Below, piece by piece: positions 2,925-42,759 of a stretch of 64,000 nucleotides of DNA. The notes beneath the pieces are model-generated. The model worked only from the letters and a program-made list of their open reading frames with translations, searched no databases and had not been told where the DNA came from. Position numbers and translations under genes: made by a program. The DNA comes from an uncultured Candidatus Saccharibacteria bacterium (GTDB lineage Bacteria > Patescibacteriota > Andersenbacteria > UBA10190): assembly GCA_964359735.1 (NCBI GenBank), contig CAYHTZ010000006.1:3898-67897 (forward strand), in the 5' to 3' direction. Every line of letters begins with the position of its first letter. Within the stretch, counting starts at the first letter, position 1.

Positions 2925-3368
2925 TTATTTTACCTCTTCTTCGAGTGCCTTCTCGATGCCTTTCTCCACTTCCTCCATCGTTACTGGCTTAGCTGGGGCT
3001 GCCTTACTCGTTACCGGAGCAGGAGTAGGACGGCCTTTGCTTCCGCGGAGCTGGTCAAGAATGGTGGCGGGGACTTCGGAGCGGCGGGGAGTGTTCAAAA
3101 TGGAGAAACGGAGCAAGCCGGCGTGCTTTTTGAAGAAGGTTTTGAGCTCCTCCACCTGGCTTGACTCTAGCTCAACTTGCAGCGCCCGCATGCCGGCTGT
3201 GCGCTTACCCGCTACGGGGTAAAAAAGCCGGCGGGGGGTATGGGGGGAGGAGAAGCTGGCACTGCCTCCAAGATCGCGGATAGCACCATCTACCTCAGCA
3301 TCAAGCTGAGCGCGAGCTTCTTCGGCGATCTCGCCGTCACTAATATAGGTGATTTCGTACTGGGCCAT
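2925..3368 (-). CDS. rpsF: 30S ribosomal protein S6
   Basis: Canonical S6 start MAQYEITYI; start trimmed to that ATG; operon order rpsF-ssb-rpsR. Confidence 0.9.
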   Translation of the reverse strand: MAQYEITYISDGEIAEEARAQLDAEVDGAIRDLGGSASFSSPHTPRRLFYPVAGKRTAGMRALQVELESSQVEELKTFFKKHAGLLRFSILNTPRRSEVPATILDQLRGSKGRPTPAPVTSKAAPAKPVTMEEVEKGIEKALEEEVK

Positions 3369-3412
3369 GGTGCAGAAAAAATATACCAAACGGACCAAAA
3401 AGTCAAAAGTGT

Positions 3413-3455
3413 CACCCCACTTCGCCCCACCGGCTGGCGGGGCTTCGCGGGGCGT
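3413..3455. repeat. copy A of short GC-rich repeat CCCCACTTCGC-spacer-GCTTCGCGGGGC (intergenic, ychF/rpsF)
   Basis: The same two half-sites occur at 3853-3881 and 8764-8790. Confidence 0.5.
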
Positions 3456-3457
3456 GG

Positions 3458-4420
3458 TTACACCGCGAACTTAAAGATCACCACATCTCCGTCCTGAACC
3501 ACGTATTCTTTGCCTTCATCGCGCAGCAGCCCGCGAGCTCTAGCGGCCGCGTAGGAGCCGGCAGAAAGGAGGTCCTGCCAGGCGATTGTCTCGGCGCGGA
3601 TAAATCCTCGCTCCATGTCAGAGTGGACTTTACCAGCGGCTTCAGGGGCCTTCGTGCCTTGCCGTACTGTCCAAGCGCGGGTTTCTTTTGGTCCGGTGGT
3701 TAGGAAGGTAATGAGGTTGAGAAGAGAATAACTGGCTTGAATAAGACGGTTGAGGCCAGTGTCTGCCAGGCCGTATTCCTGTAAGAAGGTAGCGCGCTCT
3801 TCGTCAGAGAGTTCAACCAACTCCTGCTCGATTTTTATGGAAATAGGGAGTACCCCACTTCGCTCGGAAGCTTCGCGGGGCGCAGCGGGCGAGATCTTAC
3901 CCTTGAACTCAGCAATAATGGCATCGGCGTTTTGCATTTGAGTTTCCGAAAGATTTGCTATGTACAACGTGGGTTTGGTTGAAAGTTTTGGCGTGTCTTC
4001 TTTGGTGTTTAAGTCAGCTAGCTCGAGCTCGGTGCGGATCGTTTCCACATCGTCGATCGGGTTTACCCGATTCATAACGTGGGTAATACTGGGGTCTTCA
4101 AAGAACCGGACTACATGGGCAATGGCGTCTACTTCCCGGATGTGGGAGAGAAATTGATTGCCCAGCCCCTCGCCTTGGTGCGCGTTCTTCACCAGGCCGG
4201 CGATGTCTACAAACTCAACGCTGGTGGGCACGATTTTTTCAGATTTGCTCATGGCCGCCAGTTTTTCTAGGCGCTCGTCGGGCACAGGCACCACGCCGAC
4301 ATTCGGGTCAATGGTGGTAAACGGGACATTCCGCGCCGCCACCGCTTGCTTAGTAAGCGCGTTAAATAAGGTAGACTTGCCCACATTGGGGAGACCAACA
4401 ATACCGATTCTTAAGCTCAT
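3458..4420 (-). CDS. ychF: ribosome-binding ATPase YchF (Obg-family GTPase)
   Basis: G1 GIVGLPNVGKSTLFNALT, G-domain and C-terminal TGS domain (DMERGFIRAE...DGDVVIFKF). Confidence 0.95.
   Translation of the reverse strand: MSLRIGIVGLPNVGKSTLFNALTKQAVAARNVPFTTIDPNVGVVPVPDERLEKLAAMSKSEKIVPTSVEFVDIAGLVKNAHQGEGLGNQFLSHIREVDAIAHVVRFFEDPSITHVMNRVNPIDDVETIRTELELADLNTKEDTPKLSTKPTLYIANLSETQMQNADAIIAEFKGKISPAAPREASERSGVLPISIKIEQELVELSDEERATFLQEYGLADTGLNRLIQASYSLLNLITFLTTGPKETRAWTVRQGTKAPEAAGKVHSDMERGFIRAETIAWQDLLSAGSYAAARARGLLRDEGKEYVVQDGDVVIFKFAV
3853..3881. repeat. copy B of the CCCCACTTCGC/GCTTCGCGGGGC repeat, embedded in-frame in ychF
   Basis: Encodes the extra peptide SPAAPREASER relative to canonical YchF between the G-domain and the coiled coil. 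Confidence 0.5.
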
Positions 4421-4571
4421 ATCCCAACCTTTCGGTGGTTAGCGGTATGTGACCCCATATTTCACCTTTCTTTTGCCCATATATGACTACTTTATCAATT
4501 AGTTCCCTTATTACAGCTGTTCTGTTGCGAAAATCAAGTTTGAGAAAGATACTTTGTTGTACTAATCCGAC

Positions 4572-5519
4572 CTAAATCATGCTTTGTCCTTTGTGTGGTT
4601 TGTATTCAGAGAAGGGTGTTAAAGCAATGAAGTTAGAGTTGTTTTTTCGATAACAAAATTTGTTATCTATAACTTCAACTTCTTGGACTAACTCCAAGTC
4701 TTTTGGGTCGCCAGTTCTTGATATATAGGTCTTGTTGCTTCCCATGAAAGTACCTGGAACACTGTTTGGTAAAGTGCCAACCATTAACGTGATTACGCCA
4801 CCCCCTACAGTGGGCAGTTCTTTGGTGGCTGCCGTTGAAAAAATGAAAGCAGCTAGTACACCCGTTTCTCGTATGACGTTGCCGCACCCTTTCTCGAACT
4901 CTAATTGACCAATGAGGGTTGAGGGTACGTCTTCCTTCGAGAATCCTTTTGGACCGTAAGCCAAGTATTCACCCCAATCAGTGTCTTCGATTTTTAATAG
5001 GTTTTCTTTGGGGGATATTTGTACCCCGAATAAACGGCTGTGTGGCACTGGCAGTTCTGGGTATGGGTTGGGATTGTTCCCTTTAGCTTTAAGTCCCTCA
5101 TAAATTACAGGCTTCAGTTCCATTTGGGTGCCTGTAGTGTCTTGAAAATGCTTAACTTTCTTGATTAACTGTTTTCCAGAAATTATTTTCCTTTTGTCTG
5201 GATCAATGCCAGCAAATAACAAGCAAGACTTTGCGTAGTGATGTGATTCAAGATATTTATTGATAGTTTGTTTAATCCACCCCTCTATCCCTGCTCGGAA
5301 CTGATCAATAGGGAGTTTTGGAATTGGATCCGCTTTTAACTTTTTAAAAAGATATTGAGCAAGTGCGAGGTCACCAGCGGCCGCAACAAGAAGATTATTA
5401 TGTATGTTTTCTATCTTGAGGATGTCATCCTTGCTATCACCTGATACGGTTTTAGTTAATCGAGTATCGGCTGCTAGATAAATTCGGTCTGATAAATTAG
5501 CTCCGAATATCAATGACAT
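4572..5519 (-). CDS. hypothetical protein (orphan ORF in a low-GC island)
   Basis: AT-rich K/N/I-rich ORF; start set at ATG (MSLIFGANLSD) preceded by GAGGAGG about 9 nt upstream; no recognisable domain. Confidence 0.6.
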   Translation of the reverse strand: MSLIFGANLSDRIYLAADTRLTKTVSGDSKDDILKIENIHNNLLVAAAGDLALAQYLFKKLKADPIPKLPIDQFRAGIEGWIKQTINKYLESHHYAKSCLLFAGIDPDKRKIISGKQLIKKVKHFQDTTGTQMELKPVIYEGLKAKGNNPNPYPELPVPHSRLFGVQISPKENLLKIEDTDWGEYLAYGPKGFSKEDVPSTLIGQLEFEKGCGNVIRETGVLAAFIFSTAATKELPTVGGGVITLMVGTLPNSVPGTFMGSNKTYISRTGDPKDLELVQEVEVIDNKFCYRKNNSNFIALTPFSEYKPHKGQSMI

Positions 5520-5971
5520 ATTAGGTGTCCTCCTCAAGGTTTAGGGTAGTCAAATACCAGATGGAATTTCATCGATTCAAAGGTTGGGATGGAAGCGTTA
5601 CTATCCCTACTCTTAGGTTCATATCCCACTTTTTCGGTTAGTTTGCATAATGTGTTAGATGGTAACGGAATGTGGATAACAACTTCAACTTCCTTTCTAT
5701 TCTACCTAACAAATACCCCGACCGTCAGCTCGGGGAAGTTTATGGGAAGCCATTTAACAGCAGTACGGGCTACTACTGGAATGTAATACTGTAGTAGGAA
5801 GGTGTTTTTGCGGGAATGCCCTTGTTGGGTATAAAGAATCTTTGCAGGATTACTTGCGTGATTATTGCGCGATTCTAGTTAAGTGGCTATATAGGTCGGC
5901 TACAAGTGATTATGTATACGGGACCCAAACGCCAAGCAGGTAGCGCAAAGTAGGATATTTCTTGGGAAGGC

Positions 5972-8605
5972 TTACAACCCGGTCACAGCTTTAATCTTAT
6001 GCCTGGTTTTGGGACCGACGTATCCTAGGGCTGGCTGAACGTTGTGTTTTTTCTGAAAGGTGGTTACGGCATTCTTGGTCGACAGATCAAAGAGAGTGGT
6101 CAAGGAGCGTTCGCTGTAGCTACCTTCATAGATCAGGAATTGCTGCAAGGCGGCTACTTCCGCACCGCTGTCGCCATACTGCAAATCTTTTTCAAACAAT
6201 AACAAATCTTCCGGTACCTCCAGACGAACAAGCGACTCCGAGACCACATTGAGTTTAGCGCGCGTTGCCTGATCAGTTATGCCGGTTTGCGGTAGATTAT
6301 GTTTGGCTTGAAAGCGTTTCAGAGCAGTTTCCGTTAATGCCCCAAAGTAGCCGGTAATTGATTTTTCCGGATACAAGTCTTCGTCGGCGGCCAAGACCTC
6401 TTGCAAATGCTCGACTTCAATATCTTGATGACCCCGTCGCAAATCTTCAACAAAGTGTTCTTTCGCTACCCGTGGAATAATAAGCGGAACTTTACTCAGC
6501 TTGATCTGATTGCGTCCTTTAACCGCGCTTAACGAAACATTAATCCCTTTGGAGTACTGTCCGGCGCGATTATACGAGTAGAGTGTATAGTACGCCGTTT
6601 TGCCGTTGGTGACCGCGGTGTCGGTAAAGCTCTGACTGCGGCCCTGATAGACCACTTTGCCATCAGAGGGTGAGCTCGCATAGCCGCCAGCCTTTTTGAC
6701 GATCACCGTTCGCACAAAAGCACTGCTGGGAGAGTTTTGCCACGTTAAGGTAATTTGTTTATCTTCGCCAGAACCATTCAGAACAAACGGTGCATTGGTC
6801 GTTGATCCAGCCGAGTCTTCAGCTTCAGGTTCGTTGGCGCCGCTGCTGTCAGTTGTCTGGCCACTTGGTTCAAATGCAGGAGTGGCGTTAGTCACATTCG
6901 AGAGCGATGACCACGTTGTCTCTGCGTATTTTGATTTGAGCGCGAAATAGTAACGGGTGCCAGGCGTAAGACCAGCGACGATATATCTGCGCTGCGCTCC
7001 GTTTGGTTGTACATCGCCGTAGAGGACAGGTGTAGATTGGGCGCGATGAGCCTGGCTAAAATTAGCTTCAGTAATTGGCTCCTGACTATATCGAATGGTG
7101 TATTCCGCGGCGGTATCAGCATCAGCGTTCGCCACCTGCCAACTTAGCGTGGCCGAGGTTTGATCGTGCGTATTAACAGCTACATTTGTAATGGTATGGG
7201 GAGGCTGAAGGATGCTTACTCCTTCTTTTGAAGTATCAGCAGTGGTTGTAAAGGTGGAGTCGCTCGATTCGGTGATATTCCCCACTTCATCGACGGAGCG
7301 TACTCGGTAGTGATAGGTGGTGTCGGGTGTAAGATGAGCGAGGTGGACGCTATGAGCAGTAGTCCGCGTGGCCGAAGCAGCGCTGACTTGTCCGTAGGCA
7401 GTGCTCAGGCCGTACTCCACTTGTGAAGTAGCACCTTTATCTGTATGCCAAGTAACGGTAGTGGTTGAGCTTTCCACGGCCGAGGCGCTGACGGCAGAGA
7501 TGGTGGCCGGAGCAATGATAGTGGTCGGTTCAGCTAAGGTAGTAAACTCTTCATTGGCCGAGACGGTGGCAACCGTGCCGCCGAGCGGCTTTGACTTCAC
7601 ACGGAAGTAATAGCCGGTATTCGAAGCAAGATCAGTTACTGTCACCGAGTGAGTCGTCGTCAATTCTGAATGTAAGGGCGAAGTCTGGCCAAAGAACGCA
7701 TTATCGCCGTATTCAACTTGGGAGTCCGAGGGTACATTCGTATGCCAGGTGATTGTCACGCTGGAAGTGTCGATAGAGGCTGCTTCAATGAAGGAAAAAA
7801 CAACTGTTGAAGGACCGGTACTCTCCGGCACAATTTCACCAGTAGTAAAGGTATTGTCTGGGGTGACAGCCAAATTACCCGCTTCGTCGCTTGATGCGAT
7901 GCGATAGTGATACAGGGTATTGAGGGAAAGATTCGACAGAGTAATGGCGTGAGTTACTGCCAAGTTTGCATCAAACGGCGAGACTGCGCCATAGCTAGCT
8001 GTGGTACCGTACTCAACTTCGCCATTCGCCACCTCGGTAGTTGTCCAGTTAATGGTAGCCGAAGAAGTCGTAAGAGAAGTGATGGTAACTGTTTCAATGG
8101 TGGGTGGGTTAGCATCAACTGCGGTCGGGACTGTGTCAGTAGTAAATGAGTGGCCGCAGGACTGACTCGCATTGCCCGTAATATCCGTAGCATGAATGCA
8201 GTAGTAATACGTGCTGCCAGCGGTGAGGTTCAGAATCGTGGCTGTGTGAACGAGCAGAGCCCCGGTGCCAAGGGTAACGCTATGGCCATAAGTAGTGGTG
8301 GACCCATACTCCAAGCGGGAAGTGGCCACCTCATCGGTGGACCAGACAATAGTGGCTTCAATGGGTAACAAGGAGGCTTCAGCCACGTTAGAGATGACGG
8401 GTGGGGTGGTGTCGCCAGGCGCTATAATCGGGGCGACTGTTTCAGTGACAGGTGGTGTGGTTGGTACAGATGTTGCCTCCGGAGTCGTGACAGGGGTAAT
8501 TTCTGGAGTGGGCAGCGGCGGGTTAAGTTCAACTTGCGCGTACGCTGGAAAGATATTCAGGCTTAGCAGAGTTATGACCAGCAGGGGCGCAAAGGATTTT
8601 TTCAT
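5972..8605 (-). CDS. secreted cell-surface protein with 4-5 fibronectin type III-like repeats and two C-terminal peptidoglycan-binding (PG_binding_1-like) domains
   Basis: Signal peptide MKKSFAPLLVITLLSLNIFPAYA; repeated about 90-aa units (INWTT.EVANGEVEYG...YHYR); C-terminal LQ.FL repeats typical of PG-binding domains. Confidence 0.8.
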   Translation of the reverse strand: MKKSFAPLLVITLLSLNIFPAYAQVELNPPLPTPEITPVTTPEATSVPTTPPVTETVAPIIAPGDTTPPVISNVAEASLLPIEATIVWSTDEVATSRLEYGSTTTYGHSVTLGTGALLVHTATILNLTAGSTYYYCIHATDITGNASQSCGHSFTTDTVPTAVDANPPTIETVTITSLTTSSATINWTTTEVANGEVEYGTTASYGAVSPFDANLAVTHAITLSNLSLNTLYHYRIASSDEAGNLAVTPDNTFTTGEIVPESTGPSTVVFSFIEAASIDTSSVTITWHTNVPSDSQVEYGDNAFFGQTSPLHSELTTTHSVTVTDLASNTGYYFRVKSKPLGGTVATVSANEEFTTLAEPTTIIAPATISAVSASAVESSTTTVTWHTDKGATSQVEYGLSTAYGQVSAASATRTTAHSVHLAHLTPDTTYHYRVRSVDEVGNITESSDSTFTTTADTSKEGVSILQPPHTITNVAVNTHDQTSATLSWQVANADADTAAEYTIRYSQEPITEANFSQAHRAQSTPVLYGDVQPNGAQRRYIVAGLTPGTRYYFALKSKYAETTWSSLSNVTNATPAFEPSGQTTDSSGANEPEAEDSAGSTTNAPFVLNGSGEDKQITLTWQNSPSSAFVRTVIVKKAGGYASSPSDGKVVYQGRSQSFTDTAVTNGKTAYYTLYSYNRAGQYSKGINVSLSAVKGRNQIKLSKVPLIIPRVAKEHFVEDLRRGHQDIEVEHLQEVLAADEDLYPEKSITGYFGALTETALKRFQAKHNLPQTGITDQATRAKLNVVSESLVRLEVPEDLLLFEKDLQYGDSGAEVAALQQFLIYEGSYSERSLTTLFDLSTKNAVTTFQKKHNVQPALGYVGPKTRHKIKAVTGL

Positions 8606-8763
8606 GAGATTAGTGTGAAGTATAGCATGAGTTGGTATTCAGTTTTAGTAAGCGCTGGAGCTTGCGAATGCACAATCCGGCCTAAGTTATCGCGCTGCAC
8701 TATAATTCGCTCTCGGCGGGGCTTGGGCAGGGTAAGCGTGAGGGTAAAAGGAAGTAATTGAAA

Positions 8764-8790
8764 CCCCACTTCGCTAAAGCTTCGCGGGGC
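8764..8790. repeat. copy C of the CCCCACTTCGC/GCTTCGCGGGGC repeat (intergenic)
   Basis: aaaCCCCACTTCGCTaaAGCTTCGCGGGGCaag. Confidence 0.5.
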
Positions 8791-8839
8791 AAGAGTTGGG
8801 GTGGTACTCAGTCGATCCCTACTTTTAACGACATGACGG

Positions 8840-9316
8840 CTAGTAGCTGAGGGACATTGAGCCTTCGTGGGTGAAGCCGGCGCCCTCGCCAGTAAAACTG
8901 AATGGCACGGTTTTACTATCTTTATTAACGACTCCACTAAACTGCGCGCTGGCCGGTATATTCACAAAGAAAGGGCTACATGCTCCTGCCATCGTGCCGG
9001 AAATCGCCCCATTATTTTGACCACTGAAGGTGCCCTTTACTTTTCCTTCACATGTTCCTGAAACAGAACCGGTCACGGCTCCGCCTTCCAGGGGAATGTT
9101 GGCGGTTACGTTTACCGAGTAATCTTTGAATGAATACGTCCCGGTGGCCGTGACAGCTCCTTCAGGTTCGGGTTCTTCAAGTTTTCCTAGTAAGCAATCA
9201 AAAATATCTTCTTCACCGCTACAGTTTTCAAAATAGTAGCCGATAGCCTCGTTGCCACCGAGGATAATAATGATAAGGATAACTACTATTAAGGCTCCAC
9301 ATCCCATTTTCCCCAT
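8840..9316 (-). CDS. small membrane-anchored Gly/Thr-rich hypothetical protein
   Basis: N-terminal TM segment ALIVVILIIIILGG; ORF only. Confidence 0.5.
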   Translation of the reverse strand: MGKMGCGALIVVILIIIILGGNEAIGYYFENCSGEEDIFDCLLGKLEEPEPEGAVTATGTYSFKDYSVNVTANIPLEGGAVTGSVSGTCEGKVKGTFSGQNNGAISGTMAGACSPFFVNIPASAQFSGVVNKDSKTVPFSFTGEGAGFTHEGSMSLSY

Positions 9317-28302: not shown

Positions 28303-28995
28303 ATGAAGAAAACATGGATTGTGAGTTTTCTTTCGCTCTTCACGGTGATGGTGGTGACGCTGGCACTCAGCGTGAACTTTGTGGGAGCTGAAAGCGGCAG
28401 TAATGGGGATTTGGGTAATGGTGACGGCAACAGTGGGCCGGATCATGATAATGACGGCAAGAGTGATGCTACCGACCCAGATGATGATAACGACGGAATC
28501 GTAGACAAGAAAGAGAGCAGCAGCGGCAAACTGGACCATGATAACGACGGCATCAAAGATGCCAGTGACCCGGATGACGACAACGATGGCATTGCCGATA
28601 CGGAAGACACGATGCTGCTGGATGCTGACAACGATGGCATTCGCGATGATAAGGACAATGATGACGATGATGACGGTGTCAGCGATGCTAAAGAAAGTAA
28701 GCCAAAGGACCACGATAACGACGGCATCGTGGACCGGTTAGACCCAGATGATGATGAGGATGGTATTCCTGATTACATCGAGCGGGGCAATTACCTGCCT
28801 GACCACGACAACGACGGGATCAAGGACAAGAAAGACCCGGACGATGACGCCGATGGCATCTTGGACACAGCTGATGCCAAACTGTGGGACCAAGATAACG
28901 ACGGCATTGTAGACAAACTGGATACCGATGATGATGGCGACGGCACACCAGACGCCAACGACATCACGAAGATAAGCCGATCAGGGAAGGGGTGA
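28303..28995 (+). CDS. secreted calcium-binding protein with tandem thrombospondin type-3 (TSP3) repeats
   Basis: Signal peptide; more than 10 D.D.DG..D motifs (DHDNDGI.D..DPDDDNDGI.D); the same full SD as the gene at 15168. Confidence 0.8.
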   Translation: MKKTWIVSFLSLFTVMVVTLALSVNFVGAESGSNGDLGNGDGNSGPDHDNDGKSDATDPDDDNDGIVDKKESSSGKLDHDNDGIKDASDPDDDNDGIADTEDTMLLDADNDGIRDDKDNDDDDDGVSDAKESKPKDHDNDGIVDRLDPDDDEDGIPDYIERGNYLPDHDNDGIKDKKDPDDDADGILDTADAKLWDQDNDGIVDKLDTDDDGDGTPDANDITKISRSGKG

Positions 28996-30865: not shown

Positions 30866-30888
30866 GCAATTCCACCTACGAGGTGGAA
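30866..30888 (+). terminator. hairpin AATTCCACCT-ACG-AGGTGGAATT after the stop codon
   Basis: 10-bp perfect stem; weak T tract. Confidence 0.35.
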
Positions 30889-30968
30889 TTCTCGGCACCG
30901 GAATCTGGGGCGGAGAGTGTGAATACTGCGCTTATCGCGAGGCCTGGCAGGAGGCGGAAGCTCGATGA
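30880..30968 (+). pseudogene. 3'-terminal fragment of a paralogous Cas4-like nuclease gene
   Basis: ...GECEYCAYREAWQEAEAR* is about 80% identical at DNA level to 29690-29790 (ECEYCMYREAWQTAESR). Confidence 0.45.
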
Positions 30969-35490: not shown

Positions 35491-35545
35491 TAACCCATAC
35501 GGCTGCAGATTCCACACCCCGTGTGGAATCGGTCTCATTTTTGTA
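35491..35545 (+). terminator. repeat-terminator copy 1: AACCCATACGGCTGCAGATTCCACAC-CCC-GTGTGGAATC then TTTTT
   Basis: 10-bp stem; near-identical copy at 36725-36770 with a complementary loop (GGG). Confidence 0.55.
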
Positions 35546-36724: not shown

Positions 36725-36770
36725 ACCCATAGGGCTGCAGATTCCACACGGGGTGTGGAATCTTTGTCTG
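36725..36770 (+). terminator. repeat-terminator copy 2: AACCCATAGGGCTGCAGATTCCACAC-GGG-GTGTGGAATC
   Basis: Between convergent genes. Confidence 0.5.
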
Positions 36771-38895: not shown

Positions 38896-38918
38896 GATTC
38901 CGCTCCAGGAGCGGAATT
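38896..38918. terminator. hairpin GATTCCGCTC-CAG-GAGCGGAAT between convergent genes
   Basis: Same GATTCC...GGAATC outer stem as the 35491/36725 repeats. Confidence 0.35.
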
Positions 38919-42123: not shown

Positions 42124-42759
42124 TTAGAGCAGATGGAAAGAGTCTAGAATTTGCTGGAAGACTTCGCGGCCTTGGGGGTATGTGTCAGGGTTGTACACAA
42201 AAGAGAAGGTGTAGGTAACGCCTTCATGGTGGATCATGGCATCGACCTGCTGGCCGAGCATGGTGCTGGGGTCGTTCTGGGCTCGGAATGAACCGGGAAT
42301 GCTATCAATAATAATCGGTCGGCTGGCGATGCCGGGACGGCTCATCACTTCATTGGGGTCACCGGGGCCGGCGTGCAAGCCGAATGACGCGCCGCGTTCG
42401 TAGTACTGGGGAACAAAGGGGCCATCGGTGTTTTCGTCAGCGCGAACAGAAAAATCAGGGCTTTGGGCACTGATGTAAGATAGTCTCACGCCTTTCTTGC
42501 CTTCACTGGCTGTAACTTTCCAGCCCGTGGGAAGAGTGATGCTATAAAGATTTGATTTGTCAGTGATGAGTTCCCCTTCGAGGGTTGGCAGGGGTGTTGG
42601 CGCTGGGGCGAGCCCCGTTTCAGAGGGACTGGCAGTTCCGCTCGCAGGAGCGGAACTTGTCTGAAACGGGGTAGGGCTTCTTAAGACAGCGTACCAGATT
42701 GCGGCCGCAAGGATGGCGAGGATAATAGCTGGACCAATCAGTAAAGGAAGACGTCGCAT
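42124..42759 (-). CDS. membrane-anchored hypothetical protein
   Basis: TM segment then linker TPFQTSSAPASGTASPSETG shared with the 14081 gene. Confidence 0.5.
   Translation of the reverse strand: MRRLPLLIGPAIILAILAAAIWYAVLRSPTPFQTSSAPASGTASPSETGLAPAPTPLPTLEGELITDKSNLYSITLPTGWKVTASEGKKGVRLSYISAQSPDFSVRADENTDGPFVPQYYERGASFGLHAGPGDPNEVMSRPGIASRPIIIDSIPGSFRAQNDPSTMLGQQVDAMIHHEGVTYTFSFVYNPDTYPQGREVFQQILDSFHLL
42613..42671. repeat. 59-bp nested palindromic cassette inside the CDS (outer arms CCCCGTTTCAGA/TCTGAAACGGGG, inner GTTCCGCTCGCAGGAGCGGAAC)
   Basis: Related to 14664-14729. Confidence 0.45.

Follow-up and report, generated by a model that had tools for sequence, protein, structure and literature searches.

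The described systems closest to the DNA repeat analyzed here are the repetitive extragenic palindromes (REPs), the REPIN-RAYT systems and the Rickettsia palindromic elements (RPEs). REPs are short GC-rich sequences of 20-40 nt that form imperfect palindromes and carry a conserved nonpalindromic tag at one end (PMC3733652; PMC3116915), and intragenic copies have been documented, including copies in repair genes and at the same recB site in two Xanthomonas species (PMC3733652). REPIN-RAYT systems persist vertically over very long times (PMC3116915; bioRxiv 10.1101/2021.07.10.451892), and the insertion of RPEs in frame is likewise documented (PMC3733652). The repeat in question was found in a 64-kb stretch of DNA (hereafter the window) from an uncultured Candidatus Saccharibacteria bacterium (contig CAYHTZ010000006.1, positions 3,898 to 67,897). 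It looks like an undescribed family of miniature mobile DNA, a hairpin of about 30 bases scattered over genomes of the ultrasmall bacteria of the candidate phyla radiation (CPR, or Patescibacteria). The element is of a known kind, REP- or RPE-like; its breadth, its preference for coding sequence and its master sequence set it apart.

In the sense used for REPs, the element is a short, repeated imperfect palindrome: the unit measures 26-44 nt, three copies lie in the window and at least 118 loci carry it. It resembles the REP/REPIN-RAYT systems in its GC-rich palindrome with a tag at one end, in clustering and nesting, and in occupying occasional intragenic sites that include repair genes (PMC3733652; PMC3116915). 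Further likenesses are a strand-specific hairpin in which mismatches matter, dispersal, and frequent location just downstream of genes. The tag differs, being GCYTG here whereas REPs are defined by GTAG (or CGTC) (PMC3733652). REPs are predominantly extragenic, whereas ~70% of the copies studied here lie in open reading frames (ORFs) of at least 150 codons and have a frame-constrained length; a REPIN is an inverted doublet, whereas 118 of the 120 exact copies are singlets within their locus. In addition, the density of the element is modest, and one master sequence serves a superphylum rather than a genus. REPIN-RAYT systems have a single-copy RAYT gene (a Y1 HUH transposase), which the repeats usually flank; approximate queries found no RAYT in the 4,479 ORFs searched (at most 8 kb per genome).

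RPEs offer the other close parallel, as palindromic in-frame inserts in functional genes of small-genome, cell-dependent bacteria that add surface peptides (PMC3733652). However, RPEs are ~100-150 bp long, confined to Rickettsia and CGTC-tagged, whereas the element is ~30 nt long, CPR-wide, and of another sequence and architecture. The mobile GC clusters of yeast mitochondria, including the translationally bypassed 'byp' elements, are GC-rich palindromic hairpins of ~30-50 nt in coding and noncoding DNA. They comprise several families, show nesting, are mobilized in a way that is unclear, and reside, like the element studied here, in a reduced genome. The differences are that the strong constraint on length modulo 3 described below indicates translation rather than bypass, and that the host is bacterial.

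The hairpin and its family

Exactly three copies of the repeat lie in the window, all on one strand and all with the exact core, at 3415-3452, 3853-3880 and 8764-8789; the 64 kb hold no other copy, either exact or with up to 4 mismatches. In plus-strand coordinates, half-site CCCCACTTCGC is at 3415-3425, 3853-3863 and 8764-8774, and half-site GCTTCGCGGGG(C) is at 3442-3453, 3870-3881 and 8779-8790. A first-pass annotation of the sequence had given the coordinates of the copies exactly, except that it began copy 1 at 3413, 2 nt ahead of its true start. The local genes are read from the minus strand, and on it every copy reads CCCCGCGAAGC-(4-16 nt)-GCGAAGTGGGG. Copies 1 and 3 are indeed intergenic, as had been noted, each between tandem minus-strand genes. 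Copy 1 (3415..3452, minus) sits in the ychF-rpsF spacer a few nt 3' of the ychF stop codon, and its outer module CCCCGCGAAGC...GCGAAGTGGGG encloses in its tip a nested second hairpin, CCCGCCAGCCGGTGGG (3426-3441), related to a CPR hairpin family with the sequence CCGCCAGCTGGCGG. Copy 2 (3853..3880, minus) lies within the ychF ORF (3458-4420, minus), in the sense orientation. Copy 3 (8764..8789, minus) is the minimal 26-nt form and lies between a 158-aa hypothetical gene (8840-9316, minus) and the gene of an 877-aa fn3/peptidoglycan-binding protein (5972-8605, minus). It is preceded by minus-sense TCTTG (8790..8794), which fits the family's 5' flank, GCYTG directly before CCCC, and it has an orthologous counterpart in another locus, L087, with the tip TTTG. 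The spacings between the three copies are 438 and 4,911 nt, and their occurrence within 5.4 kb of the window is mildly nonrandom (p ~0.02).

The window is only one of many places where the repeat occurs. The first-pass annotation had proposed a search for paired half-sites and allowed that just three copies might exist. A scan for the exact 22 specified bases, with a gap of 0-30 nt, in a 596-Gb collection (one genome per species) recovered far more, at least 118 loci holding 120 copies in species-representative genomes, against ~2 expected by chance. Among the matches listed, every record is a metagenome-assembled genome (MAG) of Patescibacteria/CPR or is mislabeled. The host groups listed are Peregrinibacteria/Peribacteria, Saccharibacteria, Paceibacteria/Parcubacteria groups, and Berkel-, Uhr-, Andersen-, Woese-, Roizman-, Gottesman-, Davies-, Levy-, Shapiro- and Beckwithbacteria. 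The records labeled 'Gammaproteobacteria/Pseudomonadales' all stem from one automated submission, and their syntenic proteins are 50-75% identical to those of CPR-labeled loci; the only 'Nanoarchaeia' contig (L004) encodes a bacterial IF-3. The public taxonomic labels of such MAGs, including those of L001, L003, L018, L021, L023 and L029, look wrong. The element is thus CPR-wide rather than private to the source genome, and it is a strand-specific hairpin, two points that go beyond the first-pass annotation.

The flanks are unrelated between loci, except at a handful of orthologous sites, and the repeat unit is therefore the hairpin itself and not a portion of a larger element. The 0.94 Mb of fetched loci contain ~31 further copies with 1-4 mismatches, or ~1 per 25 kb, a density that resembles the 3 per 64 kb of the window, and shuffled controls contain none. 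In this unbiased sample diverged copies predominate (~31 variants versus 2-4 exact extra copies), as expected of a master sequence with decaying descendants. Among orthologous copies (5 groups), the 22-nt core is unchanged though the flanks differ by 20-30%, and the tips vary, which is suggestive of constraint or recent renewal. Rfam gives no match at the gathering threshold anywhere in the window, and nothing relevant at E values up to 10 within 3300-9000. The literature searched contains no description of the sequence and nothing specific on palindromic elements in CPR/Patescibacteria.

When the minus strand folds, six pairs form the outer stem, CCCCGC/GUGGGG; the fifth of them is G·U, or G·T in DNA. 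Inside the stem lie a symmetric 3x3 internal loop in which two GAA triplets are opposed, then an inner GC/GC stem, and finally a variable tip, which in the window is UUUA in copy 3 (TTTA in DNA), UUCCGA in copy 2 (TTCCGA, a UCCG loop closed by a U-A pair) and the entire second hairpin, CCCGCCAGCCGGUGGG, in copy 1. The half-sites had originally been described as a direct CTTCGC core flanked by inverted CCCC/GGGG; this is correct, and the opposite strand gives a better reading of the same bases, namely a hairpin with a symmetric GAA/GAA internal loop. The complementary strand has an A·C mismatch and pyrimidine loops and does not form the hairpin. For copy 1, the predicted RNA fold of the minus strand has a free energy of -38.3 kcal/mol (z = -4.8) versus -24.7 kcal/mol (z = -0.7) for the complement, and DNA parameters give the same asymmetry (z = -2.7, minus strand only). 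Because the hairpin folds on the CCCCGCGAAGC strand only, one strand of the element can be defined as its 'sense' strand. The sequence GCGAAG(C/T) occurs in each arm, and d(GCGAAGC) is an extraordinarily stable DNA mini-hairpin with a GAA loop (PMC13037366). The likeness is that both arms hold the mini-hairpin's sequence; the difference is that the GAA triplets of the element lie opposite one another in the 3x3 loop of a longer hairpin.

The stem is maintained through compensatory changes. In 31 distinct variants gathered without any requirement for pairing, 93% of stem cells are still paired, and sliding the partner by 1-3 columns lowers pairing to 35-63%. All six outer-stem pairs covary, and compensatory double changes number 18, versus 3.4 in shuffles, of which 0/500 reached 18. 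The least variable parts are the GAA/GAA loop and the inner stem. A metagenome scan with the 14-nt inner pattern, aimed at unbiased outer stems, yielded ~6 family members among 120 matches, the remainder being chance; metagenome members add the covarying stems TCCC/GGGA, CCAA/TTGG and CCCG/CGGG.

These results leave practically no room for a chance, compositional or assembly artifact, since the collection scan, the shuffles and the covariation refute it: single half-sites are modestly enriched in the window (6 versus 1.4 expected at up to 1 mismatch; 3 versus 0.6), and for GCTTCGCGGGGC 3/100 shuffles reach 3 matches, but the paired 22-nt pattern occurs 0 times in block shuffles of ~0.94 Mb as against at least 118 loci from many independent projects, with in-frame copies in conserved genes and covarying stems.

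Copies inside genes and between them

The copy in ychF provides a filled site that can be compared with empty ones. Copy 2 together with 5 flanking nt constitutes a 33-nt insert (3851..3883, minus) that adds the 11 residues AAPREASERSG relative to the closest YchF relatives. These proteins (P0002, P0003, P0004, P0006 and P0007; 78-83% identity) read ...FSP-(V/A/I)LP(I/L)S... with no insert, and the window YchF reads ...ISP-AAPREASERSG-VLPIS... (insert-spanning peptide ...SPAAPREASERSGVLPISIK). The insert is also absent at the DNA level from L119 and L120, which encode P0002 and P0007. The first-pass annotation had inferred an insertion (SPAAPREASER) relative to E. coli YchF; the residues AAPREASERSG are an addition relative to the closest relatives as well. 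The orthologue alignment that it called for shows the insert missing from the nearest relatives in both protein and DNA, rather than conserved at the protein level. The ends of the insert can be placed to within ~3 nt, and the DNA alignment with L119 and L120 shows no target-site duplication. An AlphaFold model of YchF (mean predicted local distance difference test score, pLDDT, 70.6) places residues 179-189 in a loop between a helix (165-176) and a strand (189-194), with pLDDT below 50 for residues 178-185. On the best reading, copy 2 is a tolerated 11-residue insertion in a surface loop that is modeled with low confidence. Other YchF relatives, seen as protein sequences only, have short inserts of other sequences at this point (DKGGSRGV, LPLTKGEAKEGV and EPARRIGGKGEREGV).

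The family as a whole is also found mostly in genes: the ~70% of copies that lie within stop-free frames of at least 150 codons do so in both orientations and in all six frames. A Pfam scan of 50 host ORFs matched 119 families, including housekeeping families; among the host genes are those for class I aminoacyl-tRNA synthetases, arginyl-tRNA synthetase (ArgRS), UvrC (3), DNA polymerase A (2), UvrD (2), SecA, ribonucleotide reductase, thymidylate synthase (ThyA), TsaD, TGT and a GatA-type amidase. Family statistics here and below rest on the listed copies, 123 in the tip, flank and strand counts. The tip length equals 1 mod 3 (4, 7, 10, 13, 16, 19, 22, 25 or 28 nt) in 101/123 copies (p = 1e-28), and this bias holds for 90% of coding copies versus 65% of intergenic ones. 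Because a tip within an excised segment would carry no such constraint, the bias argues that the insert is translated and is neither spliced out nor bypassed. Intragenic copies are antisense to the host gene by 60:26 (86 copies, p = 3e-4), and copies lie on the C-rich strand by 80:43 (p = 1e-3); both biases would result if strong hairpins are selected against in mRNA or on the template of the lagging strand.

A single site in UvrC shows how such loops may be used repeatedly. Two Paceibacteria UvrC orthologues (L085 and L102, with 70% nucleotide identity over 830 nt) share one position of the element: in both, it separates the first cysteine of the Cys-rich motif from the second. Their copies are oppositely oriented and encode LPREALAKWG and EPHFAKASRG, and the CTTG tag moves with the hairpin when the orientation reverses. 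Among 120 UvrC homologues, the basal linker is 7 residues long (xPxSGKP, 36 proteins), and many lineages carry other short inserts at the site. Those reading PPAGG correspond to the sequence of the CCGCCAGCTGGCGG hairpin, a short palindrome is present in the DNA of an (A)LRRAQGK insert (L242), and the DNA of an LDFAQGK insert (L241) looks like a decayed half of the studied element. The nearest UvrC relative of L085 (81% identity) already bears a different insert. Since UvrC homologues carry such varied short inserts at one site, tolerated protein loops act as sinks whose occupants are replaced time and again, perhaps because existing hairpins are targets for new ones.

The surroundings of the intergenic copies have features of their own. 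The ychF-rpsF spacer is variable among relatives. L119 has there only a 16-nt mini-hairpin, CCCCGCGTATGTGGGG (a short CCCCGC-loop-GTGGGG form), just past the ychF stop. The rpsF start of L119, a Logan contig, is called at an ATG within the CCCCGCGTATGTGGGG loop (L119:4357), and the conserved N-terminus MTDYEI begins ~50 nt downstream; the gene as called is probably too long. In L120 a diversity-generating retroelement (L120:7199-9164) lies between ychF and rpsF, exactly where the window has copy 1; this spacer corresponds to window 3369-3457. A bAvd gene and a reverse transcriptase (RVT_1) belong to the retroelement, along with a pair of 132-nt repeats that are 85% identical (8579-8710 and 9033-9164) and likely represent its template and variable repeats. 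A link between this retroelement and the hairpin was considered and rejected: the repeat pair and its surroundings hold no copy of the hairpin. In the window, copy 1 is followed by a U-rich stretch and then by a promoter-like TTGACT-17-TATTTT (3406-3378) for rpsF (2925-3398, minus). Copy 3 lies ~50 nt past a stop codon, and UUUCAAUUACUUCCUUUU follows it. Between copy 3 and the start of the 877-aa gene there is also a conserved noncoding block of ~110 nt (within 8606-8763, minus sense). It is 79-84% identical to L087:133-244, where the neighboring genes are not homologous, and a second copy in L087 (~2150-2290) lacks the hairpin and lies upstream of a SpoVG-like ORF. Rfam has no match to the block, which may serve as a promoter module or a leader or may encode a small RNA.

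Proposed spread of the element and alternative explanations

Several properties of the unit bear on how it may move. The bases directly before CCCC have the consensus GCYTG (G.46, C.66, Y.74, T.66, G.81), and the sequence 3' of the hairpin is close to random. The tag CYTG and the 26-nt hairpin together make up the usual unit of 30 nt. The tips are themselves palindromic (for example CCGAAGG, TCCCTCAGGA and CCCGCCAGCTGGCGGG), CTTG (21 copies) and TTTA (14 copies) being the most frequent. Self-nesting in tips is seen in L051, L086, L117 and window copy 1, and the element nests inside, or hosts, two other hairpin families, CCGCCAGCTGGCGG and GTCATTGCGAG... Another hairpin ends 0-2 nt upstream of 17/123 copies versus 6.5 expected (p = 2.5e-4), and the same copies show no such excess downstream. 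Three of the intergenic copies directly adjoin the end of a tRNA gene (overlap or gap, 0-2 nt): L075:1930-2035 (5' end of tRNA-Ile), L095:7561-7658 (5' end of tRNA-Met) and L108:3203-3301 (3' end of tRNA-Val).

The two companion families were observed in their own right. The family (T/C)CCGCCAGCTGGCGG(A/G) is an independent CPR hairpin that encodes PPAGG in frame (L008, L023, L030, L059, L063; window 3426-3441); it occurs alone, nested in the tip of the studied element, or in frame at the UvrC hotspot (P0124, P0237, P0240). The repeat GTCATTGCGAG...GGCAATC encloses hairpin copies in L021, L079, L090 and L077 (1860-1975 and 2665-2790). In L077 the two copies, both nested in GTCATTGCGAG..., form an inverted pair around a 155-aa membrane-protein ORF and a tRNA-Arg gene. 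A reading of this pair as a REPtron was rejected, as the enclosed genes are these two and not a transposase.

The explanation that best covers these data, to which we assign a probability of roughly 0.6, is a dispersed, CPR-wide family of ~30-nt nonautonomous hairpin insertion elements, imperfect palindromes that resemble REPs and RPEs. Copies are dispersed in unrelated loci, present or absent between related genomes, located at intergenic and ORF sites in both orientations, and of frame-keeping length; we infer that the element spreads as DNA. Self-nesting, the opposite orientations in UvrC, loop inserts that differ by lineage, adjacency to hairpins and tRNA genes, and clustering are typical of mobile hairpins. 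The first-pass annotation had suggested a mobile or recombinogenic mini-element that tolerates in-frame insertion, comparable to RPEs, and this idea gains support from the at least 118 dispersed loci and the large share of copies in ORFs, with mobility itself deduced from presence and absence.

By analogy with REPs, and from the statistics of target context, the single-stranded hairpin and its tag would be recognized in trans by an enzyme encoded elsewhere in the genome. The most likely route would be an HUH-type or similar enzyme, as RAYT/IS200-type HUH transposases are for REPs. Insertion would favor single-stranded or hairpin-adjacent DNA, namely hairpin feet, hairpin tips and tRNA gene ends. 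Selection would then remove copies that break the frame, fall outside tolerated protein loops or put a strong hairpin in mRNA, and intragenic copies would persist only if they are in frame.

A number of points weigh against this explanation. No mobilizing gene was found by phmmer with approximate IS200 TnpA and E. coli RAYT queries in the 4,479 ORFs of the window and 120 loci (at most 8 kb per genome); the one marginal match (L063, 4488-4919) is without a Pfam domain. The copies have no flanking terminal inverted repeats and no target-site duplication, and the 5' tag is neither the GTAG nor the CGTC of known REP superfamilies. One 22-nt master sequence over a superphylum is unusual, in that REP-type elements are normally lineage-specific, and it would therefore call for a very conserved enzyme or recognizer, or for frequent horizontal transfer. 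A vector for such transfer would have to lie outside the viral and plasmid sets: the exact pattern has 0 matches in 2.9 million viral contigs (IMG/VR), and BLAST searches of phage and plasmid collections with the consensus unit gave no full-length match and chance-level partial matches only. The copy density is modest, roughly 1 per 20-25 kb. Mobility is deduced from presence and absence between genomes of ~80% protein identity, not from population polymorphism, and the core's conservation among orthologous copies is due in part to ascertainment, since the search used an exact pattern.

A bolder form of the mobile-element explanation is conceivable, although we regard it as doubtful. A single hairpin replicator with one master sequence would be kept CPR-wide by a dedicated, conserved single-stranded-DNA enzyme or by a hijacked host function and would insert at hairpin feet, hairpin tips and tRNA ends; together with sister families such as CCGCCAGCTGGCGG and GTCATTGCGAG..., it would continually remodel the surface loops of essential proteins.

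The strongest competing explanation is that a functional RNA hairpin is selected in place, as a terminator, 3'-end stabilizer, or processing or protein-binding site, with the intragenic copies being regulatory. REPs are known to act in this way (PMC3733652), and the hairpin is stable on one strand only, owing to its G·U pair and its purine internal loop. All three window copies are in the sense of the local genes, and the surroundings of the two intergenic ones are suggestive, copy 1 lying a few nt past the ychF stop with the U-rich sequence and promoter-like rpsF site beyond it and copy 3 lying ~50 nt past a stop codon with UUUCAAUUACUUCCUUUU after the copy. The U-rich tracts downstream of both are interrupted, however, and a terminator scan does not call these copies; most family members have no T-run after the hairpin (L004 is one that has it), and there is no Rfam match. 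In addition, 60/86 intragenic copies are antisense, so that the mRNA holds the weakly folding complement, and they lie at arbitrary positions within unrelated housekeeping genes. It is plausible that copies 1 and 3 double as 3'-end or terminator-like RNA hairpins or stabilizers, as a secondary, co-opted role. Such a role cannot account for the whole family, and as a general explanation RNA function is unlikely.

A second possibility is that the repeat is a genomic signal for a conserved CPR machine, such as DNA uptake by the competence system, chromosome organization or replication priming, or a recombination site, and that this machine drives its spread. For parS and uptake sequences the receptor is conserved, and the core of the element is likewise identical throughout the superphylum. 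The replication-strand bias of 80:43 and the extraordinary stability of the GCGAAGC mini-hairpin motif (PMC13037366) also fit a signal, as do the copies in the repair and replication genes UvrC, UvrD and PolA, which recall uptake sequences and intragenic REPs (PMC3733652). On the other hand, copies arise as ~30-nt insertions and not by point mutation, and the mostly diverged copies (~31 versus 2-4 exact) look more like decaying repeats than like sites under maintenance. In duplex form the arms do not constitute a true inverted repeat, so that recognition of double-stranded DNA by a dimer is unlikely. Known uptake sequences occur roughly once per kb, and the density of the element is well under that. 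We give this explanation only a small chance of being right.

It is less probable still that there is no transposition at all and that the copies arose through local, palindrome-driven replication errors (snap-back, template switching, palindrome growth) together with gene conversion. The 'Russian-doll' self-nesting does resemble palindrome growth, the tips are always palindromic with lengths that alternate between triloop and tetraloop forms, and L119 has its short CCCCGC-loop-GTGGGG hairpin at the very site of the window's full nested copy; the reversed orientation at one UvrC site could be read in the same way. However, template switching copies local sequence and cannot yield one and the same 22-nt core and noncomplementary GAA/GAA loop in hundreds of unrelated loci and in different phyla. 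If the two GCGAAG repeats had slipped against each other, 'solo' forms would be expected, and these are essentially absent (0 exact); collapse by such slippage was rejected on the absence of the solo form CCCCGCGAAGTGGGG. None of these alternatives accounts for one-step insertions of 30-33 nt, identical cores across phyla, antisense predominance and the frame constraint together.

Other known kinds of element were also tried and rejected. A miniature inverted-repeat transposable element is excluded by the lack of a duplication at the filled and empty ychF sites, by dissimilar flanks, and by a length of 30 nt versus more than 50 bp with insertion-sequence terminal inverted repeats. A DNA uptake sequence (DUS/USS) is a 9-12-nt motif born by substitution on both strands, versus the 30-33-nt insertion seen here at ~1 per 20-25 kb. 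A CRISPR array, whose repeats are regularly spaced, does not fit the spacings of 438 and 4,911 nt or the copies inside genes, and integron attC sites would have R/L boxes with a GTTRRRY core at cassette boundaries, a core that is missing. K-turn and bulge-helix-bulge intron readings fail on architecture or on the mod-3 constraint.

Other features of the window, and significance

The window contains further repeats and genes apart from the family described above. Perfect hairpins of a second family, built on (A/G)ATTCC(A/G)C... stems such as GATTCCACAC-ccc-GTGTGGAATC, lie at 30868-30890, 35508-35530, 36739-36763, 38897-38917 and 42634-42657; two of these hairpins sit in a 44-nt direct repeat, 1,232 nt apart. 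Five coding repeats of ~75 nt at 28440-28961 are rich in D-x-D-x-D-G and resemble calcium-binding or thrombospondin-type-3 repeats. A proteasome-like gene (4572-5537, minus) lies between ychF and the 877-aa gene.

CPR bacteria account for a large part of bacterial diversity, and their genomes are tiny and streamlined; a repeat located mostly inside essential genes is therefore unexpected in them. The annotation of their proteins calls for some caution, in that short inserts in CPR proteins may derive from repeats and not from adaptation. If the element is mobile, it would provide a new and very small model of hairpin-directed DNA insertion, and it would be a source of peptide-loop variation in conserved proteins. 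It would also serve as a highly specific 22-nt marker for CPR DNA in metagenomes, which here exposed the mislabeled 'Gammaproteobacteria' and 'Nanoarchaeia' contigs, and phylogenetic profiling against hairpin presence would offer a handle for finding the responsible enzyme. Were the bolder form of this explanation to prove true, a superphylum-scale replicator of this sort would be a REPIN-like 'intragenomic symbiont' with coding sequence as its main habitat.

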